From Candidatus Anammoxibacter sp. (lineage in GTDB: Bacteria; Planctomycetota; Brocadiia; Brocadiales; Anammoxibacteraceae), in assembly GCA_021777055.1 (NCBI GenBank), contig JAIQZO010000067.1:135932-199931 (forward strand): a stretch of 64,000 bases of DNA, written 5' to 3'. Below are positions 4,196 to 60,542 of this stretch, piece after piece (the first letter of the stretch is position 1; the number at the start of each line of letters is the position of its first letter). The notes below the pieces were generated by a model, which saw only the letters and a list, made by a program, of their open reading frames with translations, was not told the DNA's origin and ran no database searches. The position numbers and the translations under genes are program-made.

Positions 4196-4211
4196 TTAGT
4201 TAACGTTAATA

Positions 4212-5705: not shown

Positions 5706-5871
5706 TAATTGTATTTTTGTATTAAAACTTGCAAAATCTTTCAATCTGTTTCGCAAACTTCTTATTAAAAAAATTAGTATGCATTAGACCTGAAATATAC
5801 TTCTTGATTACTTTGGGTATTACTCAGTTTAGAAATGTTTAAATATTGATTCTTTCATTCGCAAAAAATAT

Positions 5872-7338
5872 TTAAAATGTAAAATCATTCATCTCTTTGT
5901 ATTTTCGCATCTGAATCTCAAACACTTCACGTTCTGATTTACTTAGGGATACAATAAAATCCTTTAATCTGAAGTACGGTCTAAGTAGTAAAATCCGTAT
6001 AAGATTTATTAATGGAAAGTTTGATTCAAACGCTTGTGTTGTCTTGAAAAATGTGGAATACTTTTTTTTGTATTTCCAGCGAAGGAATTGAAGTTCGTCA
6101 GAAGAGAGGTATTTCGTCTTTACATTTGCCCAGTAACCGTTATATCTTGATATATCATTTAAGTTTGTTACGAGTCCTTCTTTTATCATCTCTTCCCTCA
6201 TGATAGTTTTAGGGTATGGGGTAATGATCTGTTCTCCATAAAAATCAATATCAAGTTTATCAAAGAATTCATAGTTTTCCTCTATCTCTTTTACGTTATC
6301 TTCTGCATGTCCTAAAATCATTCCACCGACGATTAAGATGTCGTTCTTATGTAAAAGTTCTACAGCTTTTTTTGTCTTTTCAACAATGTCTCCTTTGCTC
6401 ATCAGTTCTAAGTTCTTTTTAGAAACATTTTCAATTCCCAGAAATACAATTTTAAAACCTGCTTCGCTCATTTTCTTTACAAGGCTTGGTGACGATGATA
6501 TTCCGGTACTGCTAGCTTGTACTATGTAGTTTATTTCATTGTGACCAGCATCAATTATTGCCTGTGCCAGCTCCTCAAAACGTTTAATGTCTAGTGTTAT
6601 ATTGTCGTCAGCAAATGCAATATAACCTGCTCCCTGCTCCCTTGCATTTGAAATGTCTTTAATAATTCTTTCAATTTTATATTTTCTAAAAGAACGGCCA
6701 TACATCCTGTTTATACTGCAAAATTTGCATGTCATGGTGCATCCTCTAGAAGATTCCACCATGTCAAGTTTCTTTCCATTAAATGTGTAGTTTTGCCAGA
6801 TGCGAACTTTTCTATTAGGAAGCTTAATGTTTTCTAGATCTTCTAACGGTCTTTCTTCATTATGTTGAAATAGTCCGTTGACCTTATAAGAGAGCCCTTT
6901 AATTCCAGTGACTTCACCTTTTTTGTCTAAAGTATCAACCAGCTCCTTAAATGTCATCTCGCCTTCACCTCTAATTACAAAGTCTAAATGTTCTCCGTCT
7001 TTGCCATCACAAATCTCTTCATACATTAGGGTTGAATGGTATCCGCCAAAGGCTATCTTAATATCAGGCTTAAGATATTTCACAAACTTTGCAATTTTCT
7101 TTGCAGTCTTAAACTGAAAACTCATTGAGCTTAATCCCACAAGCTCAGGGTTGTAATCTCTGATAACATCTTCTAATGATTGTTTTAATGTTGATCTTTT
7201 TAAGATCAGATCAGCAATGTGCACGTCATGACCTTCAAGGTTTCCTGCAATATTTGACATGGCTAAGCTCGGGGCACGCCATGTCTTTTCTGTAAATTGC
7301 GGAACTGTATCAGGCATTGAAATCAATACAATTCTCAA
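5872..7338 (-). CDS. B12-binding radical SAM protein (paralog 1)
   Basis: GGYHST, RGEGE, SRGCTMTCKFC; TTG start with AAGGAG RBS. Confidence 0.9.
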   Translation of the reverse strand: MRIVLISMPDTVPQFTEKTWRAPSLAMSNIAGNLEGHDVHIADLILKRSTLKQSLEDVIRDYNPELVGLSSMSFQFKTAKKIAKFVKYLKPDIKIAFGGYHSTLMYEEICDGKDGEHLDFVIRGEGEMTFKELVDTLDKKGEVTGIKGLSYKVNGLFQHNEERPLEDLENIKLPNRKVRIWQNYTFNGKKLDMVESSRGCTMTCKFCSINRMYGRSFRKYKIERIIKDISNAREQGAGYIAFADDNITLDIKRFEELAQAIIDAGHNEINYIVQASSTGISSSPSLVKKMSEAGFKIVFLGIENVSKKNLELMSKGDIVEKTKKAVELLHKNDILIVGGMILGHAEDNVKEIEENYEFFDKLDIDFYGEQIITPYPKTIMREEMIKEGLVTNLNDISRYNGYWANVKTKYLSSDELQFLRWKYKKKYSTFFKTTQAFESNFPLINLIRILLLRPYFRLKDFIVSLSKSEREVFEIQMRKYKEMNDFTF

Positions 7339-7494
7339 CGAATGCTCCTTTTGTTATAAATCTTTCAAGACAATATGTTCTCTGTATTGTTAAGTACATA
7401 GCATAAGGCCAAAGATAATATGCGTAGTAACTTAATTAATATGACTTTCTTATCAATTTAGAGATCCGTTTGCAATATTCCGACCATTTGCTCT

Positions 7495-8226
7495 CTGGTT
7501 TTGGTAGATCTCTTTAATTCTATTTTTTAGACGTTCCTTAAATATTTGTTTGTAAAATGTAAGAGAGCTTTCCCTTGCGTTTTTCGAATCAAAATTTGTT
7601 ACAACTTTTTCGAACTCTTTTACGGTTTTTTTTGTTGGTTCTACTTTTTGATTGTAAAAGATTTGCAGTCAACTGAGGGGTAGATTACCTTTGCCATTAG
7701 TCTATAATATTTTTGTATTTGGCTTAAAATGAAGTTGGAGACGGCAATAAAATACTCTACCCGCATACTGGATGTGACGTCCCACGTACGAAAATAGTTT
7801 TCAAGAAAAGCACGGTTTTTTTCTGAAATAAAACCTTGTTTGTTTTCATTAAAGTATGCGAAATACATGTCCCATATCCAGCGCATTGAACTAAAATAAT
7901 AGCAAATATGTGTAGATGATAGGCTGGTAATAACACCTTTAGCAATACAGTGGTTTAAGCTTACAATGAGGTTGTATCCGTTTAAATTAAAAGATTCGCT
8001 AGCCGAAGGGGAAAACGGTAAGTAGTGACGTTACCCGAGTAAAAAATGAAGATTCTGTATAAAATGATGTCTTTATTTCCATTTCCTTTTTTGACAGACA
8101 AACTGAACCTATATTGTGTAGCAATGTATATATATATCTGCTACGGGTATATTCCGCAAAGGGCTTCCATACAATTTCACTGCTGCGCATACTTGTTAAC
8201 CACTCTTGAATTAAAGTCACTCTCAA
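7495..8226 (-). pseudogene. degraded GT4 glycosyltransferase
   Basis: Fragments in several frames: MRVTLIQEWLTSMRS (cf. MKVALVHDWLTGMRGGE), HCIAKGVI, SMRWIWDMY, FIAVSNF..YY...VIYPSVD; C-terminal domain largely missing; 3' end approximate. Confidence 0.75.
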
Positions 8227-8411
8227 GCTTTTTCTCTCTTGTATGGTAATTCTGAAATATCTCTTATCATTTCCAGTTTTAGACCATTTGCATTTCTACC
8301 TTATAATTAATAAGTATTCAAGGTTAACATATAATTACACTTTTCTCCCTTTTTGTCAATAGATGAATTGTAGATTGTGTAGTGTGGAATTAACCTTTTC
8401 TAATTCAGCTT

Positions 8412-8993
8412 TTACTTCACCTTATCCCTGGGGATAAGGTGAAGCCATCTGGTAAACTCTTTGGCAACTTGTTCAGATTCGATCAATACAGACGCTTCAT
8501 TGTTCTTGTTTAAAGCACTATAGGTCCAATTTGTACTCCCGACTATTGTTATATAGTTATCAACAACAATAATTTTGTTATGAGTTATCTGCTTTTTATC
8601 ATCATAATATACAGGGACGTTGGCTTTTAGTAATAGGCGGTACGCTTCACTGCTTTTTCTTTCAATATGGCCTTTGTATTTCCCCTTTGCCCAGAAGTTT
8701 ATATTCTGGTCCAGTATTACCTTGACATCAACGCCTCTCTTATGTGCATTTATCAGATCACGGACTAATGTTTTAGTATACCCTGATTCACGGTTTTTCG
8801 GCAGCTTTGCCAGGTACATTACGCAGAATATGGACCTTTGTGCATTTCTTAGGACTTTATGTACCTTTGAGAAATATTGATCATTAATTAATGGGACTAC
8901 GTTGTCTGCAGGAAGTGCGTAACATTGATGTAAATAATAAAATGGCAAAGAACAAATAAATAAAATGCTAATAATGAGAGCTTTTTTTGTCAT
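8412..8993 (-). CDS. phospholipase D-like protein (single HKD), exported
   Basis: HNKIIVVD...GSTNWT...NNE; N-terminal signal peptide. Confidence 0.85.
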   Translation of the reverse strand: MTKKALIISILFICSLPFYYLHQCYALPADNVVPLINDQYFSKVHKVLRNAQRSIFCVMYLAKLPKNRESGYTKTLVRDLINAHKRGVDVKVILDQNINFWAKGKYKGHIERKSSEAYRLLLKANVPVYYDDKKQITHNKIIVVDNYITIVGSTNWTYSALNKNNEASVLIESEQVAKEFTRWLHLIPRDKVK

Positions 8994-8998
8994 TCTAC

Positions 8999-10297
8999 TT
9001 AAGTAAGCGTGCCTACTATATGATTGTTCTCAATACGATTAGCGTAAATAGTAATGATTTTATTCATTTTCTCTCTACCGCCTTTAAAAAACACTTTTAT
9101 GTAGCGTTCAGTATACCCACATAATAAACCAGTTTCCTTGTCAACGCTTGATTCCACCAGTACATCCAGTTTTTTATCTATAAAATTTTGTTTATAACGC
9201 TTTGATAACTCGTCCCCAAGGGAATTCAGTGCAATCTTTCTCCTGGTAATAGTACTCGAATCACAATGATTATCCATCTTTGCTGCTGCGGTTCCTTTAC
9301 GTTTACTGAATGGAAATATGTGAATTTTGCTAAAACCTGCTTTTTGGCAGGTAGAGATTGTGTTCTCAAAGTGTTCATCTTTCTCGCCTGGAAATCCAAC
9401 TATAACATCTGTTGTAAATGACGGTAGTTTTATCTTTCTTCTAATACTATCTAAAAGAGATATATATTGCTCCGATGTATACTTCCGGTTCATTCTCTTC
9501 AATATATAGTTGTCGCCGCTTTGAAGAGGTAGATGGAAATGGGGGCATATTTTCTCTGAATCAGCAATTACGGAAACCAAATCGTCTGTAATTTCATAAG
9601 CTTCAATAGAACTTATCCTTATTCTTTTTAAACCATGAATTGCCTCAAGCCGCTTAAGTACTTCAACAAGTGTGTTAGACTGTCTACCAGAATCAACATC
9701 AGTTCCGTAAGCCCCGAGATGAATACCGGTAAGCACTATTTCCGGATATCCATTTGATGTCAGGCGTTCTGCTTCCCATATGACGTCATCAATTGGCCGG
9801 CTCTTAACACTTCCCCTAACATATGGAACGATACAATAGCTGCACCAATTGTCACACCCGTCTTCAATCTTAAGGAATGCCCTGGTATGCCCCTCAAACC
9901 TGCTAATCTTTAATCCGAAAACGGAACTATGTCTATGATCACCATCTTCCTTTTGGTTGTTTTCTATCAGATCTATAATTTCAGCCTTACTATTGTGACC
10001 AATAATTACGGTCTTCTCTGGGGTAATATTGTTTAATTCCTCTTTATAGGCGTCAGCGTAACAACCGGTTACTGCGATTATTGATTCTGGATTACCCATT
10101 CGCAACCTTCTTATGTACTGTCTTGACTTTTTGTCACTAGTTTCAGTAACCGTGCAAGTGTTAACTACATATAAATCAGCTTTTTCTTCGGCCTTTACCA
10201 CCATATAGCCTTTTTTCTGCACTGCTTCTCTGATGGCCTGTGTTTCGTACTGATTTACCTTGCATCCCAGTGTAATAAATGCGCATTTTTTCATCAT
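8999..10297 (-). CDS. mtaB: tRNA t6A37 methylthiotransferase MtaB
   Basis: TLGCKVNQYE, NTCTVT, KIEDGCDNWCSYC, HIFPFSKRKGT. Confidence 0.92.
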   Translation of the reverse strand: MMKKCAFITLGCKVNQYETQAIREAVQKKGYMVVKAEEKADLYVVNTCTVTETSDKKSRQYIRRLRMGNPESIIAVTGCYADAYKEELNNITPEKTVIIGHNSKAEIIDLIENNQKEDGDHRHSSVFGLKISRFEGHTRAFLKIEDGCDNWCSYCIVPYVRGSVKSRPIDDVIWEAERLTSNGYPEIVLTGIHLGAYGTDVDSGRQSNTLVEVLKRLEAIHGLKRIRISSIEAYEITDDLVSVIADSEKICPHFHLPLQSGDNYILKRMNRKYTSEQYISLLDSIRRKIKLPSFTTDVIVGFPGEKDEHFENTISTCQKAGFSKIHIFPFSKRKGTAAAKMDNHCDSSTITRRKIALNSLGDELSKRYKQNFIDKKLDVLVESSVDKETGLLCGYTERYIKVFFKGGREKMNKIITIYANRIENNHIVGTLT

Positions 10298-11322
10298 TGT
10301 TCGGCAAGTGGTAACCCTTCTGCCCCCTTTATTTCTTCCATATTAACCTTATTTTTATTCCAGCCATAAAGCATCAGGATAACTAATCCCATACCCGCCC
10401 ATATAAGTTCACGTAAGCGCCTGAATATGCTATAAGCCATCCCTGACTCCGCGCTTAGCCCAAGTGATGTGAATATCAGTATGCCCCCGCCCTCCACAAC
10501 GCCAAGGCTGCCAGGAATAAAGAAGGAACAACTTTTTACCAACTGAACAATTGATTCAATGGTTAGAGCTTGCAAGAAAGTTATCTCATAACCCATTAAA
10601 TAGAGGATTGTGTAGACTTCTATAAGGCCGGCCATCCATGCAAGGAAATAATACATTAGGGAGAGGTAAAATCTTTTCTTCCTGTATCGATAAAAATATC
10701 TTATCTTTCCATCTAACGATTCGATCTTTTCCTTATTCTTTATCAAGAAATCAAATTTAAAATTAAATCTGTGGAGTAGATTTGATATTGATGTGAAGAG
10801 GCCTTTTCTTTGCCAGACAAAAAAACCGTATACCAATGGTATTGAAGTGACAACTGCGATAGTGACGGTTAATATCAGGTAGCTGTTTGGAGAGAAATAG
10901 TTTGTTGCCGCTACTATGCCGCATATAAGGAAAACAACCTGTGCCATTGTCATCACAGTTTTACCTACAACGACAGATGCCAGGCCATCTTGAAGGGGGA
11001 CATCGTACCGACGTAAGATATAAGCCTTTACAGGCTCTCCTCCTACATATGCTGTAGGTGTTAACACGTTTATTGCCTCTCCCGCCCACCTTACAGGAAA
11101 GATGTATTTCAGTTTTATCCCTTCAAGCCAATGATTAAAAGAAAATTGCCATCCAAGAGTATCAAGAAATGAGACTAAGATAAAAGGTATGAAAATAATG
11201 GGAAATTTGTAACCCATTAACAACAGATTACTATAAATATTGTCCAGCCCGATCTTGTATATAAGAAAAGCGAACAACAAAATTCCTATACTAAAGAACA
11301 GAATCTTTAATTTTTTGACCAT
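10294..11322 (-). CDS. LPG-synthase TM / flippase-like membrane protein (HpnL-like)
   Basis: Multi-TM; GEAINVLTPTAYVGGEPVK and FIPGSLGVVEGG motifs. Confidence 0.8.
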   Translation of the reverse strand: MVKKLKILFFSIGILLFAFLIYKIGLDNIYSNLLLMGYKFPIIFIPFILVSFLDTLGWQFSFNHWLEGIKLKYIFPVRWAGEAINVLTPTAYVGGEPVKAYILRRYDVPLQDGLASVVVGKTVMTMAQVVFLICGIVAATNYFSPNSYLILTVTIAVVTSIPLVYGFFVWQRKGLFTSISNLLHRFNFKFDFLIKNKEKIESLDGKIRYFYRYRKKRFYLSLMYYFLAWMAGLIEVYTILYLMGYEITFLQALTIESIVQLVKSCSFFIPGSLGVVEGGGILIFTSLGLSAESGMAYSIFRRLRELIWAGMGLVILMLYGWNKNKVNMEEIKGAEGLPLAEQ

Positions 11323-12020
11323 CTCTTTTTGTATACTGCAACAAGTATAAGAATGCAGTGCACTTGTACTCCTATCGCAGCTATTATCAATAATAGATGC
11401 AGCATTCCGATAAATGCACTTAAAAGGAAATAAAAGCTGAGGTTCTTATTCAAAGTACCATCAACAAATGCATCTAATTTTGTTGGCTCTTTACCATTTT
11501 CTGTTATGGCAAAACATAATGAATCCTTATCACTATCCCTTTTTACTGCATTGTAAAACACCAAAAGACTTGAAACCAAAATTCCGCAACCAGCCATCGC
11601 TCCCCACACAATGTAAGATGGTTCATTCAAATAAGTGGAAATACCTATTCCGGAAGAAATAACAACTGTGGTTGAAACTATAGCATCTGTAGTTACGTCA
11701 AGCCAGAAGCCAAACCTTGATGATTGATTCTTTTGCCTGGCAATTTCTCCGTCACAGTGATCTACGATTGTATTCACTTGAAAAATAACGGCACCTATTA
11801 GAATATTATAATAACTGCCTTTCATGAAAAAGAATATTGAGGATAGACCTATAAATGCATTAAAGATTGTGACCTGATTTGCGGAAACAGGAGTTCTAAT
11901 AAGAAGTGCAGTAATAAATGATGATATCTTTCTGTTAAGATATTTATCTATAAATCCGTCATTTGGTATACTTTTTCTCTTATTTGTTACCGATTCCGCA
12001 GAAATCGTACTATTTAACAT
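11307..12020 (-). CDS. CDP-alcohol phosphatidyltransferase family protein
   Basis: DHCDGEIAR...GFWLDVTTD signature; start uncertain (ORF track 12065). Confidence 0.9.
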   Translation of the reverse strand: MLNSTISAESVTNKRKSIPNDGFIDKYLNRKISSFITALLIRTPVSANQVTIFNAFIGLSSIFFFMKGSYYNILIGAVIFQVNTIVDHCDGEIARQKNQSSRFGFWLDVTTDAIVSTTVVISSGIGISTYLNEPSYIVWGAMAGCGILVSSLLVFYNAVKRDSDKDSLCFAITENGKEPTKLDAFVDGTLNKNLSFYFLLSAFIGMLHLLLIIAAIGVQVHCILILVAVYKKRWSKN

Positions 12021-12094
12021 ATGCAAATTGCACCAAAGTGCGACAGGAAAAACATTAATGAACAAAAAACATTTCGAACATGGATATCCGAAAA

Positions 12095-12823
12095 CTACAT
12101 TTTAAAACTTTCTTTCATTATCTCTTCTGCTTTCTTCGCGTCTTCCGGGAAATCTATCTCTATCCACGCCATACCGTCAACCGTTTCATAACCAACTGAG
12201 CTCTGTTTAAGGATATTATCATATATCTCTTCATGCTCGCAGTTATCTATACCCCTGTCAATTGCCCTAGACAAGGCCTCTGCAAGTAAACTGGCATCTT
12301 CCCCTGCTAATTTCAAGAAACCGACAGCTTCTCCTGTCAAGTCAAATTGGCCATTAAGCGGCTTCTTGGAAATCGTCAAAACCCTTTCATTCAAGATGCC
12401 TAATTTCTGTTCCTCTCCAGTGTCTTCAAAATCACTATCCATGAGAAAGCAGCTTTTCTTGGGAGAAACAATCAATTTCTCAAGGAGCTTTCTGTTGTAA
12501 ACGACATCAGCATCCATAATAATTACATCATCATTCAGTTCCTCTTTTGCGGTCCACAAAGAGAGAATGCTACCAATCTTATAGTTATCATTAACTATAT
12601 ATTTTATCTTAGTGTCTGGCTCTACCCATTCTAACTCATCATATATCTTCTCTTTTTTATAACCAACAACCAGTATAATATCTTTAATTCCATATGCTAA
12701 TAAATCTTCAACAAGGCGGTTAATAATAGATTTACCGCTTATTTTAAGAAGACATTTGGGGCTATCGTCTATAAATTGGCCCATCCTTTTTCCCACACCT
12801 GCAGCCAGAATAATTGCTTTCAT
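12095..12823 (-). CDS. LicC/PntC-like cytidylyltransferase
   Basis: MKAIILAAGVGKRM..PKCL and WIEIDFPED; start set at internal Met. Confidence 0.88.
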   Translation of the reverse strand: MKAIILAAGVGKRMGQFIDDSPKCLLKISGKSIINRLVEDLLAYGIKDIILVVGYKKEKIYDELEWVEPDTKIKYIVNDNYKIGSILSLWTAKEELNDDVIIMDADVVYNRKLLEKLIVSPKKSCFLMDSDFEDTGEEQKLGILNERVLTISKKPLNGQFDLTGEAVGFLKLAGEDASLLAEALSRAIDRGIDNCEHEEIYDNILKQSSVGYETVDGMAWIEIDFPEDAKKAEEIMKESFKM

Positions 12824-12922
12824 CTCACACTTATTTCCAAAAAAATATGTTATCAAACAGAGCCAGATTAATAAAAGCAACAAGCTGGTCTGTTCTAATC
12901 TAAAATTCCTTAATCATACATT

Positions 12923-14002
12923 TTATAATATCTCTTTAAGTGCAGAAAGAAAGCCTTTGTAATCTTCCATTGAGTGGTCACCCATATTAGAAACTCGAAA
13001 TACCTTATCTTTCAGTTCACCTTGACCTGCATAAATTATGTAGCCATGCTTCTTTAGCTCTCCATGTATATCCTTATATGTAAATCCATTCGGAAGATAT
13101 ACAGACGTAATGGAATTGGAGCAAACATCTTCAGGAAGCAAAAGCTTTAACCCCAAATCTTTAATACCGGCCCGCAAGAAATGTGCTCGTTCTTTATATG
13201 TTTTTACCCTATTATCATAACCTTCATCTGTTAGTTCATCAAGGGCCTCGTCAAATGCATACATTATTTGAACAGATGGAGTGAAAGGTACCTTGGCGCA
13301 AAAGTTGTCATCAACATAGTTTCCTAAATCAAGAAACCCTGATCGTGGAGTAATCTGTTTCATCTGGTTAAAGAGCTCTTTCTTAAAAATAACAAAAGAA
13401 ATTCCAGGAAAGCTGTGAAGACACTTATTTGTCGTTCCAATGCATACATCGATATTATTTTTATAAAAATCTACATTCTCCGCACCCAGACTGCTAACCG
13501 TATCAACAAAGAATATCTTCCCATACTCTTTGCACAACTTTCCAATATCCTCTATTTCGTTTAAAATCCCTGTTGTTGTTTCGTGATGAATAACAGAGAC
13601 GGTTTCTATATTTTTTTCTCTATCAAGGATTGCCTTTATTCTATTAATGTCAGGCGGGGAACCCCATTGGTATTCATCTTTAATAGTCTTTATTTTAAAA
13701 ATTTCTGCTGCGTCAGCCATACGTTCACCATAAACGCCATTACATATGATAAGCATATCTTTGTCTTCTGGCATTATTGATGCGATCGCTGCTTCTTGTG
13801 CCGCAGTACCACAACCGGTAAAGATCGCAACTGTATAGTCTTTTTCAATGCTGAAAACTCGTAAAAGTTTGCTCCTGATACCTTCAAGCAAGTTGACAAA
13901 CTCATCTTCCCTGTGACAAATATCGTCTCTAAGCAATGCGTTGCGTACCCTTGATGTCACATTAACAGGACCGGGGTTTAACAAAATATTTTTTTTTCCC
14001 AT
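12923..14002 (-). CDS. 2-aminoethylphosphonate aminotransferase (PhnW/AepZ, class V PLP)
   Basis: LLNPGP, HHETTTG, DTVSSLG, NKCLHSFPG (PLP Lys); located with ppd and pepM. Confidence 0.9.
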   Translation of the reverse strand: MGKKNILLNPGPVNVTSRVRNALLRDDICHREDEFVNLLEGIRSKLLRVFSIEKDYTVAIFTGCGTAAQEAAIASIMPEDKDMLIICNGVYGERMADAAEIFKIKTIKDEYQWGSPPDINRIKAILDREKNIETVSVIHHETTTGILNEIEDIGKLCKEYGKIFFVDTVSSLGAENVDFYKNNIDVCIGTTNKCLHSFPGISFVIFKKELFNQMKQITPRSGFLDLGNYVDDNFCAKVPFTPSVQIMYAFDEALDELTDEGYDNRVKTYKERAHFLRAGIKDLGLKLLLPEDVCSNSITSVYLPNGFTYKDIHGELKKHGYIIYAGQGELKDKVFRVSNMGDHSMEDYKGFLSALKEIL

Positions 14003-14111
14003 AACGTTCTATAACAATATCAGAAAACTGATCGAAAAATGTTTAATAAACTGAACATACTTGCCAATAATTATTGGTTATCACCAAAACCATATTAATC
14101 TCTATTTGTAT

Positions 14112-15098
14112 TTATTTATAACCCCAGAGTTTTAATAAATCCCCATTGTCGCTCTTGGAATAGTGCCAATATTTTATTAATGTGTCAATGGCATCAGATG
14201 TACGCTCAATATTGCTCTCTTCATTGGGAAAATCACCCCAACCGTCTTCATTTTTAACTGAAATAACCCATTTTAAACCACGTTGAATGATGTTGTCCAT
14301 CTTTGTGCGGTCTAGGCCCTCCAGCATTACCGTTGACAACATTAATGTCCTTAGGGTATCACAAGTGTGGTCCACATCATTAACGTCCCATGCTCCATTC
14401 TCTTCCTGCAAATCAATAAGCCTGTTAACGGCACTCTTATAGACGTTATCTGGAACCTTCTTTGTTATTAATAAATCTGGTAGCAATGAGTCCTGAATAA
14501 TATGTGCGGTCAAACATACACATGATTTATAAAATTTATCATCACTCCAACCGCCATCCGCGCCCTGGTTTTTTAATAAGAACTCTATTCCTTTTGATAA
14601 AGGATTAGAGGCTAAATCCTGCAGGGATTTGTTTGCCAATGTATATATCAAGGAAAGAAATTGTACCGGGTGACTAACTGCATCAATGTCAGCCCATGAA
14701 GGATCTTGCCACAATCCGTCTTCTTTCTGATTATTGGTAAGGTAGTTTGTAAACTTTCTTAATGAATCGTCAATTACACTATCACGGAGTATTTGATTAA
14801 CCCTTATGAGCATTATGGCACAAAAAGTACCCCCCCAGACCTCACTCTTCTTACTTGTGGAGTATGGCGCCCATCCTCCGTCATCATTTTGAAACTTTGT
14901 CAATGCTAGAAAATCATCCCTGTATTTGTCTGCTTTATCCACATGTAGGATAACCCTTAAAATATGTGCAACAACTTCAAGTTCTTGATCTCCTTTTAGT
15001 AAACTCCACTGATCGCTTTTAGAGAACAGACTTTCAGACTCCATATCTATTAATTCTTTTATACTATTCCTGTCTATTAAACCTTGGACTTCCGCCAT
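14112..15098 (-). CDS. prenyltransferase/squalene-cyclase QW-repeat (alpha/alpha)6-barrel protein
   Basis: QNDDGGW, QKEDGLW, QGADGGW, QEENGAW, KNEDGWG repeats; GAGG RBS. Confidence 0.78.
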   Translation of the reverse strand: MAEVQGLIDRNSIKELIDMESESLFSKSDQWSLLKGDQELEVVAHILRVILHVDKADKYRDDFLALTKFQNDDGGWAPYSTSKKSEVWGGTFCAIMLIRVNQILRDSVIDDSLRKFTNYLTNNQKEDGLWQDPSWADIDAVSHPVQFLSLIYTLANKSLQDLASNPLSKGIEFLLKNQGADGGWSDDKFYKSCVCLTAHIIQDSLLPDLLITKKVPDNVYKSAVNRLIDLQEENGAWDVNDVDHTCDTLRTLMLSTVMLEGLDRTKMDNIIQRGLKWVISVKNEDGWGDFPNEESNIERTSDAIDTLIKYWHYSKSDNGDLLKLWGYK

Positions 15099-15137
15099 AA
15101 CTACCTCACTAAAAAAAAACAGATAAATTTCTATAAA

Positions 15138-15692
15138 TCAGATTACAGCCATAAACCTCTTTTTAATCTCTTCGGGGGCGTGCGAGACTCGTTCGATTTT
15201 CTTATCATACTCCGTATTTACCTTTACAAGGATAAATACAGGCCCTTTTATCTTTAAACACTCTTCCGCTATTACACGCAGCTCTCCAGAATTAATAGCT
15301 CTGTATGTTTTTATATAGCCGCTAGCTCGAGCAACCTTCTCAAGTTCAATAACATTTGTTAAAGTTGGTTGATTTCCTGTGGAACCGTATACTTCATTAT
15401 CAAATACAAAATGATAAAAGTTCTCGGGGCAAAGGGTGCCTATCTGTGCCAATGTGCCCATATTCATCAACACATTCCCGTCACCGTCAAAAACAACAAT
15501 CTTTCTTTCCGGTTTGCTAACCGCAATTCCAAGTCCAATTGAAGCTGCTAATCCCATAGAACCGATCATATAAAAATTTTGTGGCCTGTCGTTGATAACA
15601 AAAGATTCACGACAGATCAATCCATTGGCATGGACAACTAGTTCGTCACTCAAAACTGTTAAAACCGTTTTAATTGCTTCGGCCCTTTTCAT
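15138..15692 (-). CDS. phosphonopyruvate decarboxylase beta (ThDP-binding) subunit
   Basis: GSMGLA, DGDGNVLMN...DNEVYGSTG; ComE/Ppd family in pepM context. Confidence 0.88.
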   Translation of the reverse strand: MKRAEAIKTVLTVLSDELVVHANGLICRESFVINDRPQNFYMIGSMGLAASIGLGIAVSKPERKIVVFDGDGNVLMNMGTLAQIGTLCPENFYHFVFDNEVYGSTGNQPTLTNVIELEKVARASGYIKTYRAINSGELRVIAEECLKIKGPVFILVKVNTEYDKKIERVSHAPEEIKKRFMAVI

Positions 15693-16183
15693 CCAAGTAC
15701 CCCATTCTTTATCAGGATTACAACCGGTATACTTTTTTCTTTCATCAGTTTCATAGCGGACATTATAACGTTTTCTATATTCTCTTTTTCTAGTACAAAA
15801 AAAGGAATACCTGCAACACGTAGAATTTTCTCACTTATATCACCTGCGATCAGATGTTCTGGCGCGTCCTTACCTTTATAACCACGCCAGCTTACTAGCA
15901 TAAGACATGGTATTTTATAAATAAGACTGAGTGATGTTAAAACATTGAGTGAATTACCCAAACCGGAATTCTGCATAAGTACTACTGGTGATTTACCTGC
16001 CATATATGCGCCGCTGGCAATACCAACGGCTTCATCTTCTCTTGTTGAGGATACATAAGTAACCGAATCATCATCAATTAATTCTCTGATAATGCCGGTT
16101 AAAATACTGCATGGGACTCCTGAAAAGAAATTAATACCCTGCTGTTTTAATAAATAAATGAACGATGAAGCGTTATATATCAT
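15689..16183 (-). CDS. phosphonopyruvate decarboxylase alpha subunit
   Basis: GVPCS, REDEAVGIASG, MQNSGLGN, WRG...DAPEH; 4-nt overlap with beta subunit. Confidence 0.88.
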   Translation of the reverse strand: MIYNASSFIYLLKQQGINFFSGVPCSILTGIIRELIDDDSVTYVSSTREDEAVGIASGAYMAGKSPVVLMQNSGLGNSLNVLTSLSLIYKIPCLMLVSWRGYKGKDAPEHLIAGDISEKILRVAGIPFFVLEKENIENVIMSAMKLMKEKSIPVVILIKNGVLG

Positions 16184-16292
16184 TTAATGTGTAAATCAAG
16201 GATAAATAGCAAAAAAGTGTCTGCACGTCTACTAGAATTAGATGAAGTGCAGTTTGGGAACTTTAATTAGTTGCTATATTTATAATAATAAA

Positions 16293-17282
16293 CTATTTCT
16301 TCTTCTTCTTCTCTGTGTCATTTTCTTCCACATCGTCATTTTCCGTTAAATTACTGGTAGGGGCAAAAGGATCAAACTTTCCTATTATAGTAGACACAGG
16401 TAATCCCTTGTTAATTTTTTCTACGATTGCGGCCTCTTTTTCATCCTTTAGTGCCTTAATTACCGGTATCCGCAACACTATTTCCCTGCATACTTCTTCA
16501 CTTGCCCTTGAGCGGTATACATCCCTTAATGACATACTGTTCTGAAAAGAGGCGATCACAAAATCAAAGGGATTTGTTGCGACCCTTATTTCATTAGCAG
16601 TCCTTGTCTCCTGTGCTTCAAAGAGTACTGTTCCGTCCTTTGTAGATATGCACCTGACTACCATTCCGATTGCAATTTGGGAAAAGAGAGCATAATATTT
16701 ACTGTCGTACCTTGTAACCTTTCCATAAATTAAGGCATCTGCCCCCAGTATCTCTCCCAATTGTTCAGGTGTGTAGCTGTATAACTTTTCAGGCGTATCT
16801 ATCTTTAAACCATGCAGGATAGCATCCACCGCAATTAATTCTACATCATCAAATTCGCGTGGTACTAAGTGCCCATAAAAATATGTGCGAAGCCTATTGG
16901 CATAAGTCCAGCTCCATTCGTCTTTTTCTTTGGTATCTTCCCGTTTTATCTCAAAGCCGTTTAGAATCAGGTTTCCTCCTATAAGATTTTCAAAAGGAAG
17001 TATAACAATAACCCTAGGAGGGTCTGATATAAGCTTTTTATCATACTTAAAACTGTTTCCTCCCGGATCCAACTGATAAAGTCTGTCCAACTTACCTTTT
17101 CTACCGTGTTCGGCATAATCTTTTTGGTCCAGAAAGAATCCTGCCTGATCATTATCTACTGCTTCTTTTTTATCACGTTTTGAGAAAATGGAGCCGCATC
17201 CAAATAGAGACAATGATAATATAAATGTCAAGAAATAGACTATACCGCAGGTAAATCTCTTTTTTGCCACAAATTTTTTCAT
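16293..17282 (-). CDS. lipoprotein (DUF799/GNA1162-like fold)
   Basis: Lipobox LFGC; VILPFEN and LGADALIYGKV motifs. Confidence 0.65.
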   Translation of the reverse strand: MKKFVAKKRFTCGIVYFLTFILSLSLFGCGSIFSKRDKKEAVDNDQAGFFLDQKDYAEHGRKGKLDRLYQLDPGGNSFKYDKKLISDPPRVIVILPFENLIGGNLILNGFEIKREDTKEKDEWSWTYANRLRTYFYGHLVPREFDDVELIAVDAILHGLKIDTPEKLYSYTPEQLGEILGADALIYGKVTRYDSKYYALFSQIAIGMVVRCISTKDGTVLFEAQETRTANEIRVATNPFDFVIASFQNSMSLRDVYRSRASEEVCREIVLRIPVIKALKDEKEAAIVEKINKGLPVSTIIGKFDPFAPTSNLTENDDVEENDTEKKKKK

Positions 17283-17520
17283 AATTAACCAACCGGTTTA
17301 AAATTTAAAAGCTTTTCAGATAATGCAAAAATTAAACTCTAATATAGCATAAAATAATCTTATAAGTATTAGGTTTTTATTATATTGAAAATTTTATATA
17401 TAACAACTATTATATAATCCATTGTAAATATTTCTCTAAAAATAGTACGTGGGGGCTTTATTCCATGAAATATTCTACTACTATATAACACGTATTACAA
17501 TGAAAGGCAGGTAAAAAGAG

Positions 17521-18186
17521 ATGGTATCGTTAAATTGCAAAGAGACATTCATTGCAAGAATAACATCCGTTAATTTTATTATTATCATTATTACGGCTTT
17601 TATATTACAAATAACCATGGTAAATGCAGACAATTTAACGAAGAAAAATAATAGCACTGAAGTCGCAACTTTTGCCGGCGGATGTTTCTGGTGTATGCAA
17701 CCTCCTTTTGATAAACATGATGGAGTTATCTCTACATTTGTAGGATATACAGGCGGAAATGTTGAGGACCCTACCTACGAAGAAGTTTGTTCCGGTACAA
17801 CAGGACATACTGAAGCGGTGGAGATTGAATTTGATCCGGCAGTGGTATCTTACGATGAATTGCTTAATGTTTTCTGGCGAAATATAGACCCTACTGCACT
17901 TAATTCCCAGTTTGCGGATAGGGGTAGCCAGTACAGAACTGCAATTTTTTATCACAATGACGAGCAGAAGAGATTGGCTGAAGAGTCTAAAGAAAAACTT
18001 GCAAAATCAGGTAAATATGATAAGCCTCTTGTTACAGAGATTACACCGGCAACGGAATTTTATAAAGCAGAAGGGTACCATCAGGAATATTACAAGAAAA
18101 ATTCATATCGATACAAGATGTACAAGTCTGGCTCCGGTAGGGAGAAGTATATAAAAGATGTTTGGGGAGAGACAGATGCAAACTAA
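17521..18186 (+). CDS. msrA: peptide-methionine (S)-S-oxide reductase with N-terminal hydrophobic segment
   Basis: [33 protein letters not shown]. Confidence 0.93.
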
Positions 18187-19831
18187 CGGCTTACAGAAGA
18201 ATAAAACACCCATGTTAAAGAAAACGACCCAATTGCGAACACTTATTCAGAGCAATGAACTTGAATTTCTTTTGGAAGCGCACAATGGTATTTCAGCTAA
18301 GATCGTGGAAGAGACAGGTCTTAAAGGGATATGGGCCAGTGGGCTTTCGATTTCGGCATCACAAGGAGTAAGGGATAATAACGAGATCAGCTGGACGCAG
18401 GTACTTGCAAATGTAGAACTCATGAGTGATATAACCAATATTCCTATACTTCTTGATGGCGATACTGGTTATGGTAATTTTAATAATCTACGTAGGCTTG
18501 TAAAAAAGCTTGAACAGCGTGATATTGCTGGTGTATGTATAGAAGATAAACTTTTTCCAAAGACTAACAGTTTTCTACGTACCGACCGTCAGCCGTTAGC
18601 GGATATAAATGAATTTTGTGGAAAGATTAAGGCCGGAAAAGATGTGCAGATGGATGACGATTTTGTTATTGTTGCTCGTGTCGAAGCTTTTATAACGGGA
18701 TGGGGTCTGAATGAAGCGTTGAAAAGGGCTGAGGCCTACAAAGATGCGGGTGCGGACGCTATCTTAATCCACAGTAAGCTTAGTAATGCTAGTGAGGTAT
18801 TTAGCTTTATTAATGAGTGGGAAAACAGGCTTCCGGTTGTAATAGTACCTACTAAATTTTATTCAACTCCAACTGAAAGTTTCAGAGAAAACAAAGTTTC
18901 TGTGGTTATCTGGGCGAACCATATGATACGTGCTGCTGTAACTAGAATGCAGGAGACGGCGAAACAGATTTATAACGATCAATGTCTTCACATGGTGGAA
19001 GATACTATAGTACCGGTAAAGGAGATATTTAGGCTTCAAGATGATCAGGAACTTATTGATGCGGAAAAGATATATCTGGGGGACAGTCCAACCTCTTCTG
19101 TAAATGCCGTTATTCTTGCCGCATCACAAGGAAAACAGCTTGGAAAATTAACAATTGATATGCCAAAGACTATGTTAAGGGTTGGGCGCAAAACGATTTT
19201 GAGGCGAATTGTTGACCATTTGCAAGAGAATCGCATTAACGATATCACTGTAGTGGCTGGTTACAAAAAAGAGGAGATAACGTACTCTGATTTAAATATA
19301 GTTGAAAATAGAGAGCACGAGGACACCGGACAGTTAACATCACTTTTGTGTGCGGTCAGTTCATTGAAAAAGACAACGCTTATAATATTTGGTGATATAA
19401 TCTTCAGAAAATATGTTTTGCAATTAGTGCTTGATGATGACGATGACGAGGATGTTGTAATTATTGTTGATACTAAAATTAATCCTCAAGGGAAGTACAA
19501 ATCTGATTTTGTAAGATCAAAAACAATAAAAGATAATCAATCAATCTTTTGTGATAAAAGTTATGTTAAAGAGATTGTGTTTTCGGAACCGAGCAGTGAA
19601 TATGACGGAGAGTGGATAGGTATAATCAAACTGTCGGGAAAAGCGATAGGATTCGCCAAAGAATTCTTAAAGACGCATAAAGATTCTAAAGATTTCAAGA
19701 GCATGGATATAAATGATCTGATTAACCATTATGTGGGCTCCGGATTTATGGTAAAGATACAGTACATTACAGGTAACTGGATTGATGTCAATAGGGTTTC
19801 AGACCTTACGTTAGCAAATGAACTTTATTGA
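18176..19831 (+). CDS. pepM: phosphoenolpyruvate mutase fused to a C-terminal nucleotidyltransferase
   Basis: Diagnostic [10 protein letters not shown] (EDKx5NS) and DGDTGYG; C-domain VILAASQG...PK...WIDVN; start 18176 has a GGAGA RBS and overlaps the msrA stop. Confidence 0.95.
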
Positions 19832-19885
19832 TCTAGTACTGCGTCATCGTTCTAATGACGGGTATGATCTTAAGCCTTATCCGTT

Positions 19886-20026
19886 GTACCTACTTAGGTG
19901 GATAGGCTGAAGACTGAAGGTAAAAGCATAAAGCATTTTTGGTTGCCAGGCTAATGTTAAAAAAGCAAAAACCACAGGATTTTTGCCTTTAAGCTTTACC
20001 TTCAGCCTATCCACCTGAGTAGGTAC
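19886..20026. mobile_element. 141-bp MITE-like element
   Basis: 27-bp TIR GTACCTACTYAGGTGGATAGGCTGAAG (1 mismatch); flanks TATCCGTT/TATTTGTT may be a decayed 8-bp duplication. Confidence 0.75.
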
Positions 20027-20166
20027 TATTTGTTAACAAAAAGAATTTAGATCGAATAGCTATCACCAATACAACATAGTTGTACTAGTAACTTGTTTTG
20101 ATAATAGGGATAAGAGCTCTGTTTCCGGAACGAGAAGGCGAAATAGGAAAACTTGTACGTGCTTTT

Positions 20167-21996: not shown

Positions 21997-22235
21997 CCGT
22001 GTTGTCCGGTTAGCTGTTTGTTTCATACATATGTTTATGAACATTGAGTGCCTAAGTTGCCTAAAATGAGCTAAAGTTTTAGAAATTTATTTATTATTAA
22101 TTAAAAACAACGCTATTAACTTTAGGCACTTTAAGTAATTTAGTCATTTTAGGCAATTTCTTGCGCAAGGATATTGGGAAATGTTCATAAATATGAAACA
22201 TTATTATACTACAAAAAGCTAACAGGACAATGCTG
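21997..22235 (-). mobile_element. MITE copy A (same family as 23448-23677, inverted)
   Basis: TIRs CCGTGTTGTCCGGTTAG / CTAACAGGACAATGCTG; flanking duplication ATGTTTTAT/ACGTTTTAT (8/9). Confidence 0.85.
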
Positions 22236-23068: not shown

Positions 23069-23447
23069 CTTAAAGGTTCAGAATAGAGGTCTATACATAT
23101 TTGGCTGAAATCATTAGTGACAAATAATAGTAAATAACTCTAATGCATATGATGCCATTTTATTGTAATAATGATTTTTTGCCGTCAGGTAGATGTTGCT
23201 TCAATAATTAAATACGTGAAATATAGTAAAGAGCGTAAAGCATTAAATATATCAGTCAAGCAGTAAATAGTTTAGGTATTTAATTGCCGAGTTAATATTA
23301 AATTAATATGGAGAAAGGAAGTTTTCGAAGATTAAAAGTGTTGTGTTTGTCTACTTACACGTTGTCTTCTCTTGGTATTTTATCATAACACTCTCAATTC
23401 TCTTTAACCCTATACGTTGGGGAAAGTCCTGATAACCTATTTATAAT

Positions 23448-23677
23448 CAGCATTGTCCGGTTAGTCTTTTGCAGTGCAAAAAACGTTACATATTTATCGA
23501 TATTTTACAGCCGCATAATGGGGAAAGTGCCTAAAATGCCTAAAATACTTAAAGTGCCTAAAGTTAATAGTGTTGTTTTTTATTAATAATAAATAAATTT
23601 CTATAACTTTAGCTCATTTTAGGCACTCAACGTTAGCATATATATATGCTATGCAAATCCTTAACCGGACAACACTG
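23448..23677 (+). mobile_element. MITE copy B
   Basis: TIRs CAGCATTGTCCGGTTA / TAACCGGACAACACTG; perfect 9-bp target duplication ATTTATAAT at 23439-23447 and 23678-23686. Confidence 0.9.
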
Positions 23678-60520: not shown

Positions 60521-60542
60521 CTGAAATTATGGAGAGTTCAGA

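Follow-up and report, generated by a model that had tools for sequence, protein, structure and literature searches.

Eukaryotic ethanolamine/choline phosphotransferases use CMP-2-aminoethylphosphonate (CMP-AEP) in a Kennedy-type manner, and IPCT/DIPPS enzymes take inositol phosphate as substrate and give a soluble solute as product. Among bacterial gene clusters, the Group 1 phosphonolipid or Burkholderiales_CDP-OH family (Li and Horsman, 2022; PMC8942020) has a core formed by a PepM-PntC fusion, a phosphonopyruvate decarboxylase (Ppd), a 2-aminoethylphosphonate aminotransferase (AEPT), a second PntC, a CDP-alcohol phosphotransferase and an LPG-synthase-TM (HpnL-like) protein. In the part of that study devoted to these clusters, the product of the family is given as uncharacterized in every organism so far, and the phosphonosphingolipid cluster of Bacteriovorax stolpii is placed in a different gene-cluster family, GCF 761.

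The same core gene set was found in the window, that is, the whole stretch of 64,000 nucleotides analyzed. An anammox-type bacterium (Brocadiales) encodes a complete cluster for AEP synthesis, which spans positions 10294-19831 as judged from ORFs, Pfam and NCBIfam. All the genes listed in the initial annotation (PepM with its EDKx5NS motif, a split Ppd, AEPT, two nucleotidyltransferase domains, a CDP-alcohol phosphotransferase and HpnL) were located where it had placed them. Every step of its pathway, from PEP through phosphonopyruvate, phosphonoacetaldehyde, AEP and CMP-AEP to transfer by a CDP-alcohol phosphotransferase, was matched by Pfam, NCBIfam or motif evidence. The system is of no unknown kind, however: the gene set had been described (in the family section of PMC8942020), is widespread outside anammox bacteria, and includes a PepM that NCBI had already annotated in MAGs of Ca. 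Anammoxibacter and Ca. Scalindua. By its predicted gene content, the cluster is of this recognized kind, the Group 1 phosphonolipid/Burkholderiales_CDP-OH pepM family minus its 2OG oxygenase, and we consider it likely to be a working member of the PepM-PntC/Ppd/AEPT/second PntC/CDP-alcohol phosphotransferase/HpnL-like family in an anammox host.

PepM, fused to a PntC-like cytidylyltransferase domain, is encoded on the plus strand (18158..19831; TIGR02320, 392.6 bits, cut-off 319.55), with the EDKx5NS motif at residues 129-138 and an NTP_transf_3 domain at residues 317-438. Its best solved relative is the PEP mutase 1m1b (416 bits), and the database version of the protein starts 6 codons later (551 aa). 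The ORF of the methionine sulfoxide reductase MsrA (17521..18186, plus strand; PMSR, 229 bits) overlaps the pepM ORF start by 29 bases; this gene is probably co-transcribed with pepM and is regarded as context outside the pathway. The minus-strand operon begins with a GNA1162-like lipoprotein (16293..17282; PF05643, 32.6 bits), which shows a lipobox LFGC after a hydrophobic N-terminus. The alpha half of Ppd (TPP_enzyme_N, 15689..16183; TIGR03297, 135.9 bits), 45-53% identical to its relatives, and the beta half (TPP_enzyme_C, 15138..15692; TIGR03297, 188.6 bits) come next, and sulfopyruvate decarboxylase models score as well on them as the Ppd model (TIGR03845, 149.1 bits for alpha, cut-off 147.95; TIGR03846, 187 bits for beta). 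Also inside the operon lies a single-domain alpha/alpha-toroid protein of 328 aa (14112..15098; SQHop_cyclase_C, 49 bits) with prenyltransferase/squalene-cyclase repeats and no TM segment. Its structure model (pLDDT 92.3) matched prenyltransferase beta subunits, class II terpene cyclases and complement TED in Foldseek with a TM of about 0.6, and its named homologues come from Ca. Anammoxibacter and Nitrospinota, another one lying in the Binatia cluster L084. The toroid protein, the lipoprotein and MsrA had been left out of the earlier gene list.

Further along the same strand, the class V AEPT (12923..14002) scores 357.4 bits against TIGR03301, just below the cut-off of 360.8, and forms a long branch in its tree. 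The second cytidylyltransferase, NTP2 (12095..12883), is LicC/PntC/IPCT-like, its closest solved structures being LicC (1jyk) and the AEP-specific PntC-AEPT (6pd1). The CDP-alcohol phosphotransferase, CDPOH (11307..12065; PF01066, 54.2 bits), has the complete motif D(x)2DG(x)2AR(x)8G(x)3D(x)3D, read as DHCDGEIARQKNQSSRFGFWLDVTTD; AF2299 is its best solved relative (4o6m, E 1.3e-21) and IPCT-DIPPS is also near. The last gene (10294..11322) encodes a stand-alone LPG_synthase_TM flippase-like membrane protein (PF03706, 121 bits) that passes the curated HpnL model TIGR03476 with 201 bits (cut-off 195.65). Its stop is overlapped by the ORF of the tRNA methylthiotransferase MtaB (8999..10297, minus strand; TIGR01579, 450.8 bits), which is probably merely co-transcribed, and 5 bases downstream of MtaB starts a small PLD-like protein with a single HKD and a signal-like N-terminus (8412..8993, minus strand; profile search), whose belonging to the system is uncertain.

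In the route proposed, PepM would isomerize PEP to phosphonopyruvate, and the two-subunit TPP decarboxylase would form phosphonoacetaldehyde, drawing the unfavorable PepM equilibrium forward. The class-V aminotransferase would then give AEP, and CMP-AEP would arise from one or both LicC-like cytidylyltransferase domains. In a Kennedy-type reaction, the integral-membrane CDP-alcohol phosphotransferase would use CMP-AEP as donor of the aminoethylphosphonyl group and a membrane-lipid hydroxyl as acceptor; the zwitterionic product may be moved or further handled by HpnL, a protein similar to the flippase domain of MprF. The attachment of AEP to a membrane lipid by the cluster products is probable on these sequence grounds; we infer each enzymatic step in this way, and the lipid acceptor especially. 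The nearest solved relatives of the CDPOH in the AEPT operon, AF2299 and IPCT-DIPPS, are presumably not lipid-acceptor enzymes. The Burkholderia-type 2OG-Fe(II) oxygenase was absent from the cluster and from the whole genome, so plain AEP would be expected rather than 1-hydroxy-AEP. At the locus L052 of family f2, AEP transaminase and NTP2 form one 651-aa ORF, a fusion that, as in the characterized Tde1415 (in the sections of PMC6697681 on that protein), ties NTP2 to the product of the transaminase. NTP2 differs from Tde-PntC in having Asp at the position of Glu104, as LicC does (same sections of PMC6697681), so AEP specificity is not readable from its sequence.

Besides lacking the oxygenase, the window differs from the Burkholderiales_CDP-OH family in its two-ORF Ppd, its additional toroid protein and lipoprotein, a PepM-PntC that is divergent instead of in line, and an anammox planctomycete as host. 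The gene set of the window is also found on the annotated pBRH01 of Mycetohabitans rhizoxinica, and the identities to the Mycetohabitans/Caballeronia versions were 48-52% for PepM-PntC, 36-42% for AEPT, 33-36% for NTP2, 20-32% for CDPOH and 25-33% for HpnL. Work by Yu et al. from 2013 is reportedly also cited for this pepM family. The Nitrospirota loci L068-L083 have an order identical to that of the window (divergent PepM-PntC, PpdA, PpdB, AEPT, NTP2, CDPOH and HpnL), with a split Ppd and no oxygenase as well. They differ in lacking the toroid protein, in an identity below that to Brocadiales (33-41% for PepM) and in a long N-terminal extension of CDPOH (494 aa in L068); no publication on this Nitrospirota cluster was found in the literature searched.

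The solved PntC and LicC (Rice et al., 2019; PMC6697681; 6pd1, 1jyk) share the PF12804 fold with the domains in the window. NTP2 aligned with them over 227-240 residues, and the domain fused to PepM matched them only over its N-terminal 100-115 residues; such a fusion is reported for about one third of PepM proteins in the passages of the same paper on PepM. As in IPCT/DIPPS (4mnd) and AF2299 (4o6m), a cytidylyltransferase here goes together with a CDP-alcohol phosphotransferase, and the two are fused in some relatives; the pair in the window differs in belonging to an AEP operon that also encodes a flippase-like protein. The PF03706 domain, common to HpnL and the MprF flippase domain, spans residues 10-306 of the window protein, which unlike MprF has no aminoacyl-PG synthase domain and whose gene is not next to hopanoid genes. 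The string 'phosphon' has no occurrence in the available text of bioRxiv 2025.07.29.667474, which treats HpnL. The eukaryotic Kennedy-type and B. stolpii systems have the same logic as the window, CMP-AEP and a lipid alcohol giving a phosphonolipid and CMP.

Gene content, motifs and conservation of the gene set across phyla are demonstrated. Across Brocadiales, the operon with HpnL was detected in families f2 and f4 (the latter probably including Scalindua, going by a protein name in a source) and was essentially absent from f3 (47 genomes). PpdA-PpdB-AEPT-NTP2-CDPOH stood in one line in all 14 fetched loci of relatives. An HpnL-alignment scan of genome contigs kept 80 loci, and HpnL homologues almost always adjoined this module (NTP2 or CDPOH homologue in 71 of the 80), the other partners being AEPT (63), Ppd (61) and PepM (52). 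Besides the Nitrospirota loci, there are related clusters in Nitrospinota, Binatia and Burkholderiaceae. Family f2 and one f4 genus, g25, retain the operon without any PepM: TIGR02320 matched none of 14 f2 genomes, PF13714 had no member in five near-complete f2 genomes, and only ICL-like matches were obtained in the three g25 genomes.

The contig being mis-binned or chimeric, with a cluster from a non-anammox organism, is extremely improbable. The MAG consists of 114 contigs, its contamination is estimated at 2.64%, the gene order of the window is closer to Nitrospirota than to f4, and hydrazine synthase alpha (NF052339, 1351.4 bits, cut-off 800), which bears out the anammox identity first suggested for this genome, sits on another contig (C14). 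However, the tetranucleotide usage of the contig (C78) correlates with that of the remaining genome at 0.997 (median 0.995, 52 contigs), that of the 12-kb cluster does so at 0.980 (random 12-kb pieces, median 0.978), and one Logan contig spans 6000-19862 with zero differences. The closest named homologues are from Ca. Anammoxibacter (PepM 73-74%, toroid 69-70%), followed by Brocadiales f4 and f2, compared with the low PepM identity of Nitrospirota, and the window also encodes a type II DMSO-reductase-family (NXR/NAR-like) pair. A relative about 95% identical, from another study, keeps the order MtaB-HpnL-CDPOH on one contig, and a second contig covers part of NTP2 and AEPT. It is also quite unlikely that the PpdAB-AEPT-NTP2-CDPOH operon acts not, or not only, on phosphonates, the decarboxylase taking another beta-anionic 2-oxo acid (sulfopyruvate or a phosphorylated analogue) and the module installing a non-phosphonate head group of the amino-alcohol type, PepM being an optional addition. 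This would fit the PepM-less operons of f2 (AEPT at E ≤1e-82 in at least 11 of 14 genomes) and of all three g25 genomes, and the alpha subunit above the sulfopyruvate decarboxylase cut-off. The Verrucomicrobiota loci, one of them in a genome without PepM, hold NTP-CDPOH-HpnL without Ppd or AEPT, which indicates a transfer module not tied to AEP. By contrast, PepM-PntC divergently adjoins the operon in the window and in Nitrospirota, PepM lies above cut-off elsewhere in the genome in 17 of 28 f4 genomes, and the same holds for three of the four Nitrospirota/Nitrospinota genomes without it at the locus, the fourth (Nitrospinota) having a match of 276.9 bits, below cut-off. The AEPTs of PepM-less genomes show no divergence: branches are short for f2 and g25, the latter is nested in PepM-positive f4, and their identities to the window do not differ. 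As 86 of 92 genomes, across all families, encode phosphatidylserine decarboxylase, PE formation does not require the operon, and a sulfonate could presumably not be cytidylylated and transferred in a known way. The operons without PepM call for caution in assuming that every such operon makes phosphonate. A soluble or glycan-bound product, either an AEP phosphodiester solute resembling di-myo-inositol-phosphate or a glycan decoration, in place of a phosphonolipid is very unlikely: NTP2 plus CDPOH have their best NCBIfam and PDB relatives in IPCT/DIPPS and AF2299, and the window contains polysaccharide genes at other places (35-38 kb and 47-58 kb), but the IPCT/DIPPS scores of 73-101 bits are far under the cut-off of 580, neither a LicD-type transferase nor a glycosyltransferase was found in or beside the operon, the lipid-flippase-like membrane protein is a constant partner of the module, and the published reading of the family is phosphonolipid (in the family section of PMC8942020).

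Within the preferred reading, a phosphonolipid cluster of the known family, the acceptor could be a glycerolipid (ladderane or ether lipids included) or a bacteriohopanepolyol. No sequence feature pointed to the ladderane acceptor first proposed; the two B12 radical-SAM genes nearby are not orthologous to the genes of this type that adjoin HpnL in relatives (23-28% identity), and 37 such matches occur in the genome. The transfer of AEP to a bacteriohopanepolyol hydroxyl, giving a 'phosphono-BHP' with HpnL, CDP-alcohol phosphotransferase and PntC as a hopanoid head-group module, is a sub-case competing with glycerolipid and ladderane acceptors, and we regard it as possible but doubtful. The initial annotation had named this alternative, which gained circumstantial support from HpnL context and squalene-hopene cyclase (SHC) co-occurrence. 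HpnL is by NCBIfam/TIGRFAM definition a hopanoid-locus protein of unknown function (as worded in the available text of bioRxiv 2025.07.29.667474), and terpene-phosphonates are speculated on for other taxa in passages of two papers (PMC8942020; PMC8776678). An MMPL transporter, ispH, hpnH and hpnA are encoded no more than 12 kb from the Mycetohabitans cluster, an HpnN homologue occurs at Pararobbsia loci, the operon of the relative G089 abuts HpnI (360 bits, cut-off 310), HpnJ (745.6, cut-off 577.6) and a YdjC/HpnK-like gene, and HpnJ (51-56% identity) is found at Binatia L084 and delta-proteobacterial L096. HpnL beside the module, together with SHC above cut-off in each of the 38 carrier genomes examined outside Brocadiales (5/5 and 33/33; controls 0/14), makes a hopanoid acceptor possible. 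The own genome holds SHC and HpnH, and a terpene-cyclase-like toroid protein lies within the operon. However, clear hopanoid genes were within 10 kb at only about four of the 80 HpnL loci, none adjoins the cluster in the window, and SHC and HpnH are on other contigs. Within the order, 88 of 92 genomes have SHC, among them every one of the 47 module-free f3 genomes, so co-occurrence cannot discriminate there; the 38 carriers outside the order form clusters of kin, mostly in lineages where hopanoids are common, and the toroid fold match is generic. To our knowledge, no phosphorus-containing bacteriohopanepolyol has been described.

These results add an anammox host to a known cluster family: such a cluster had no prior report in anammox bacteria, and it probably serves to attach AEP to a membrane lipid, a product of such clusters never yet seen in any organism.

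ORF calling resolved two divergent transcription units between 8.4 and 19.8 kb of the window. On the plus strand, the msrA gene (17521-18186) overlaps by 29 bases the ORF of a PepM-PntC fusion of 557 aa (18158-19831), in which the first 300 residues correspond to PEP mutase and the last 240 to a MobA-like nucleotidyltransferase. The minus-strand series starts with a lipobox lipoprotein (16293-17282), followed by the two halves of a TPP-dependent phosphonopyruvate decarboxylase, PpdA (15689-16183) and PpdB (15138-15692), a 328-aa toroid protein with squalene-cyclase/prenyltransferase repeats (14112-15098) and a class-V aminotransferase (AEPT, 12923-14002). It then includes a second nucleotidyltransferase of the PF12804 type, separate from the PepM ORF (NTP2, 12095-12883), a CDP-alcohol phosphotransferase (CDPOH, 11307-12065) and an LPG_synthase_TM membrane protein (HpnL, 10294-11322), after which MtaB and a small PLD-like gene follow with no gap. 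Every gene named in the initial annotation was recovered by profile searches and motifs, and its list was therefore correct as far as it went; the toroid protein and the lipoprotein had been left out.

The region 3' of pepM contains short, high-copy intergenic repeats (19833-20080, 22080-22180, and 23447-23600), with a summed contig depth of 270-1233x vs about 38x in the flanks, and many joints and loose ends. Further along the plus strand (58916-63974), a multihaem/EB_dh gamma-like subunit was found next to a 1143-aa alpha subunit of the type II DMSO-reductase family, which scored 364 bits against TIGR03479, under the cut-off, and 153 bits against narG. This pair may be a nitrite oxidoreductase of the anammox type.

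The attribution of the cluster to an apparent anammox bacterium was borne out. The genome (5.94 Mb in 114 contigs, 93.8% complete, 2.6% contamination) encodes the alpha subunit of hydrazine synthase on another contig, C14 (NF052339, 1351.4 bits vs a cut-off of 800), together with a squalene-hopene cyclase (SHC). It is very improbable that the contig carrying the cluster, C78, of which the window covers 135932-199931, was mis-binned. Both contigs have a GC content of 0.38 and resemble the remainder of the genome in tetranucleotide composition (correlations of 0.997 for C78 and 0.999 for C14), and the 12-kb cluster is compositionally as typical as random 12-kb pieces of the genome. Moreover, one independent Logan contig, from the probable source run, spans 6000-19862 with zero differences. 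In a run from another study, a relative of about 95% identity keeps the order MtaB-HpnL-CDPOH on one contig, and a second contig covers part of NTP2 and AEPT. The closest named proteins also belong to Ca. Anammoxibacter MAGs (73-74% identity for PepM and 69-70% for the toroid protein).

The assignment of the individual enzymes was supported to different degrees. PepM carries at residues 129-138 the motif EDKxxxxxNS, which sets PEP mutases apart from the rest of the isocitrate-lyase family; the other PF13714 member of the genome, on C60, has EDQ...KKCGH in its place. PepM exceeded the curated cut-off of TIGR02320 (392.6 vs 319.55 bits) and matched the solved mussel PEP mutase 1m1b with 416 bits. 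The Ppd halves scored 135.9 and 188.6 bits against TIGR03297, whose cut-off of 312.5 is set for the whole protein, and 149.1 (passing the cut-off of 147.95) and 187 bits (below 221.5) against the sulfopyruvate decarboxylase models. Ppd should be encoded together with PepM, whose equilibrium has to be pulled by coupling; in the window the two are 1.3 kb apart, and in the f2 family and the g25 genus of family f4, which lack PepM, this pairing was not found. AEPT fell 3.4 bits short of the curated TIGR03301 cut-off (357.4 vs 360.8), which its orthologues exceed in 31 of the 92 genomes of the order Brocadiales. In a tree of 34 of the 94 operon-holding loci (L068 was left out for its short HSP), the AEPT of the window lies on a long branch that joins the outgroup without resolution, so that the tree speaks neither for nor against Nitrospirota as the horizontal source of the cluster.

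For the later steps, the PntC domain fused to PepM lies at residues 317-438 of the ORF (PF12804). NTP2 has an Asp aligned with Glu104 of Tde-PntC, as in LicC, so that sequence cannot settle its specificity. The traits sought in a PntC are a preference for AEP over phosphocholine, a small pocket and, in Tde-PntC, Glu104 and Glu196; in PMC6697681, however, Ari-PntC is described as LicC-like too, yet AEP-specific, and the residue at this position is therefore not diagnostic. CDPOH contains the complete motif D(x)2DG(x)2AR(x)8G(x)3D(x)3D at residues 102-127 and scored 54.2 bits against PF01066 (gathering cut-off 22). HpnL passed the curated TIGR03476 cut-off (201 vs 195.65 bits), which was reached by no other of the 92 genomes of the order, the homologues in f2 and f4 scoring 139-174 bits. 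The toroid protein was not assigned to the terpene cyclases, as its fold matches were generic (TM about 0.6) and no DxDD motif was seen when the translation was inspected by eye.

The gene set was compared with the pepM neighborhoods classified by Li and Horsman (PMC8942020), where, in the part of the article available, 'Burkholderiales_CDP-OH' is the largest family, is equated with the Group 1 phosphonolipids of Yu et al. and has a product that was never characterized. The core described there is a PepM-PntC fusion together with Ppd, AEPT, a 2OG oxygenase, a further PntC, and a pair of phospholipid genes. Exactly this set is annotated on the megaplasmid of Mycetohabitans rhizoxinica, in which the phospholipid genes encode a CDP-alcohol phosphatidyltransferase and a 'lysylphosphatidylglycerol synthase domain' protein. 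The window shares six of the seven core genes but lacks the oxygenase, for which tblastn gave no match at E 1e-5 or better in the whole genome, and unmodified AEP would thus be expected as the head group. Because of this difference, the cluster was filed as a variant that probably works like the Group 1 family, strict membership not being claimed. It represents a common and previously known type of cluster in variant form, not a new kind of system, and the PepM of such clusters in anammox MAGs is already annotated by NCBI. No literature on phosphonate biosynthesis or phosphonolipids in anammox bacteria or Scalindua was found, although the supplements of PMC8942020, of PMC9902471, and of a hopanoid-gene preprint (bioRxiv 2025.07.29.667474) may list Brocadiales or Nitrospirota clusters. 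Within the literature searched, what appears to be unreported is the presence and family-level distribution of the cluster in Brocadiales, the same architecture in Nitrospirota and a related form in Nitrospinota, the near-obligate linkage to HpnL, and the operons without PepM.

The route predicted, at every step, from family membership and context would begin with the conversion of PEP to phosphonopyruvate by PepM, of phosphonopyruvate to phosphonoacetaldehyde by PpdAB and of the latter to AEP by AEPT. The PntC domains would then form CMP-AEP, CDPOH would use this donor to place the aminoethylphosphonyl group on the hydroxyl of a lipid, and the product would be flipped or handled by HpnL. The strongest contextual support for a putative action of NTP2 on AEP comes from f2, where NTP2 is fused to the transaminase in a 651-aa ORF, the same fusion as that of the characterized Tde1415 in the available part of PMC6697681. 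CMP-AEP as the donor and a lipid alcohol as the acceptor of CDPOH are suggested by the neighboring AEP genes and the flippase-like protein. A soluble product is also possible, as the nearest relatives of CDPOH are AF2299 and IPCT-DIPPS; however, the flippase-like partner is invariable and LicD and glycosyltransferase genes are missing, which favors a lipid acceptor. An operon serving as a needed route to PE in place of Pss/Psd was discarded, PS decarboxylase being present in 86 of the 92 genomes and in all families. A C-P head group on anammox lipids, the central idea put forward initially, stays a reasonable prediction that can be tested.

The survey of pepM neighborhoods that had been proposed for Brocadiales was carried out on the 92 genomes of the order. 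PepM exceeded its cut-off in 19 of them, namely the genome of the window, 17 of 28 in f4 and 1 of 47 in f3, and each of the 14 loci retrieved from f4 and f2 showed PpdA-PpdB-AEPT-NTP2-CDPOH in one colinear run. Homologues of CDPOH were detected in 12/14 genomes of f2, 24/28 of f4, and 1/47 of f3, and those of HpnL in 12/14, 26/28, and 0/47, respectively. In f1, the module was found in the genome of the window only, its sole family-mate (G001) having neither PepM nor HpnL. The module is thus present in f1, f2, and f4 and essentially missing from f3, which we infer to hold the commonly cultured genera. The one PepM-positive f3 genome (G045) carries a different, unfused PepM in a 438-aa frame, 33% identical to that of the window, with its own PpdA/PpdB directly after it and a CDP-OH transferase-like gene 7.7 kb upstream (locus L041); this phosphonate cluster is a different one and was probably acquired independently. 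A PepM of 58% identity bears the source name 'Ca. Scalindua sp. AMX11', and since this matches the identity level of f4, that family probably includes Scalindua.

In f4, PepM-PntC lies away from the operon, next to regulators, FUR/AhpC or CTP synthase, with no further transferase around it, so that its only plausible partners are in the operon. Oxidative-stress genes adjoin PepM-PntC in the window (MsrA) and in an f4 relative (FUR and an AhpC/TSA peroxiredoxin, L037:8083-9109). This fits a passing mention, given without analysis in the available part of PMC9902471, of oxidative-stress transcripts from 'phosphonate' clusters of MAGs including Scalindua.

The same operon was also observed in genomes with no PepM. 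None of the 14 f2 genomes (G002-G015) matched TIGR02320, no PF13714 member was detected in five of them with a completeness of 94-98% (best E-value 0.019), and all three g25 genomes (G087-G089) gave only isocitrate-lyase-like matches. The operons concerned (L052-L055 in f2, L050-L051 in g25) encode Ppd, AEPT, NTP, and CDPOH with the same identity to the window as those of PepM-positive genomes, and the tree shows no divergence of their AEPT sequences. Phosphonopyruvate may come from another source in these genomes, or the decarboxylase may act on a different substrate for a use other than phosphonates. A systematic assembly gap is unlikely, as it would have to span 17 genomes. A conserved gene of 287-289 aa, with 67-77% identity, lies directly upstream of PpdA in the four f2 loci (L052:5887-6756, L055:6226-7089, and homologues in L053 and L054) and is absent from the genome of the window. 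Considered as a candidate PepM substitute, it gave no Pfam or NCBIfam match, and the protein atlas pointed only weakly to Zn-dependent phospholipase C (0.86). The operons without PepM make it less certain that phosphonate synthesis is common to all such operons; this matters less for the window, because PepM is adjacent there.

Additionally, a scan with an HpnL alignment over one genome per prokaryote species yielded 80 loci. By tblastn, NTP2 or CDPOH was found at 71 of these, AEPT at 63, Ppd at 61, and PepM at 52, counts that, the query being drawn from such clusters, speak for close HpnL relatives and not for all LPG_synthase_TM proteins. Seven of the nine loci with no partner were on contigs under 8 kb. 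Close relatives of HpnL are therefore nearly always linked to the module, whose carriers were Burkholderiaceae, Nitrospirota, Nitrospinota, Binatia, delta-proteobacterial and Thermodesulfobacteriota MAGs, Steroidobacteraceae, and Brocadiales. The Nitrospirota loci have the exact gene order of the window, including the divergent PepM-PntC. Three loci from Verrucomicrobiota MAGs (L085, L088, and L090) contain only the NTP-transferase, CDPOH, and HpnL, with no Ppd, AEPT, or PepM, and one of the genomes with such a locus is devoid of PepM. Evidently, AEP synthesis need not accompany the transfer module.

Regarding the lipid that would receive the head group, no evidence for ladderane specificity was obtained. 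The model for ladderane-type B12 radical SAM proteins (TIGR04072) gave 37 matches in the genome, none of them over the cut-off (best 150 vs 360 bits). Two B12-binding radical-SAM genes on the minus strand (4212-5756 and 5872-7338) are paralogues with 53% identity and reached only 71.6 and 88.3 bits. They were dismissed as a link to ladderanes, since they are only 23-28% identical to the radical-SAM proteins beside HpnL in f2 and the genome holds 37 such matches. A Fom3-like methylation of CMP-phosphonate by these proteins was likewise dismissed, as no specific family matched and the best model, BchE, scored 172-180 bits, far below its cut-off.

A hopanoid as the acceptor is considered rather unlikely, though several observations point toward it. 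The HpnL model itself is matched, hopanoid genes adjoin the cluster in Mycetohabitans and Pararobbsia, and HpnJ occurs at 51-56% identity in Binatia and delta-proteobacterial loci. In the g25 genome G089 (L050, 4562-9225), the genes that directly adjoin the AEP operon encode HpnJ (745.6 bits), HpnI (360 bits), and a YdjC/HpnK-like protein. Moreover, SHC was present in 38 of the 38 non-Brocadiales carrier genomes tested vs 0 of 14 control genomes, and a terpene-cyclase-like toroid protein belongs to the operon of the window, recurs in Binatia and is known by name from Nitrospinota. However, adjacency to hopanoid genes is rare (about 4 of 80 loci), the carriers are interrelated and come from hopanoid-rich lineages, and SHC is near-universal in Brocadiales (88/92), including the module-less f3. 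The genome of the window encodes SHC (770.5 bits, C14) and HpnH (434.8 bits, C36) but no homologues of hpnI, hpnK, or hpnN, and no hopanoid gene was found in the cluster itself. L050 also contains a second, N-terminally extended CDP-alcohol phosphotransferase (2848-4419). Three genomes of genus g23 of f4 (G064, G065, and G066) have SHC on the same contig as the operon, 28-43 kb away, and at L048 the operon has a polyprenyl synthetase at a distance of 4 kb. No paper linking hopanoids or HpnL with AEP was found; the hopanoid-gene preprint (2026), in the part available, calls the function of HpnL unclear and never mentions phosphonates. It is improbable, although conceivable, that HpnL, CDPOH, and PntC form one hopanoid-decorating module by which CMP-AEP provides a C-P head group to bacteriohopanepolyol in the Anammoxibacter-like lineage, f4, the small-genome f2, the nitrite oxidizers of Nitrospirota and Nitrospinota, Binatia, and Burkholderiaceae. 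The preferred reading is that of an AEP head group on a lipid, of whatever class.

Production of such a lipid would give marine and subsurface anammox lineages a head group resistant to phosphatases and phospholipases. As AEP is 16 Da lighter than phosphoethanolamine, it would be missed by ordinary lipid screens targeted to PE, PC, and PG, and the near-absence of the module from f3 offers a further explanation for such a lipid being unreported. The tight linkage of HpnL to the module provides a testable hypothesis on two long-standing questions, namely what HpnL does and what the Group 1 pepM clusters make. Were the acceptor a hopanoid, HpnL would gain a function, the most abundant family of pepM clusters would gain a product, and a new phosphorus-containing hopanoid biomarker would be predicted to be common to the main nitrite-using guilds of the nitrogen cycle. 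The finding would place anammox bacteria among the producers of reduced phosphorus compounds in oxygen-deficient waters and sediments.
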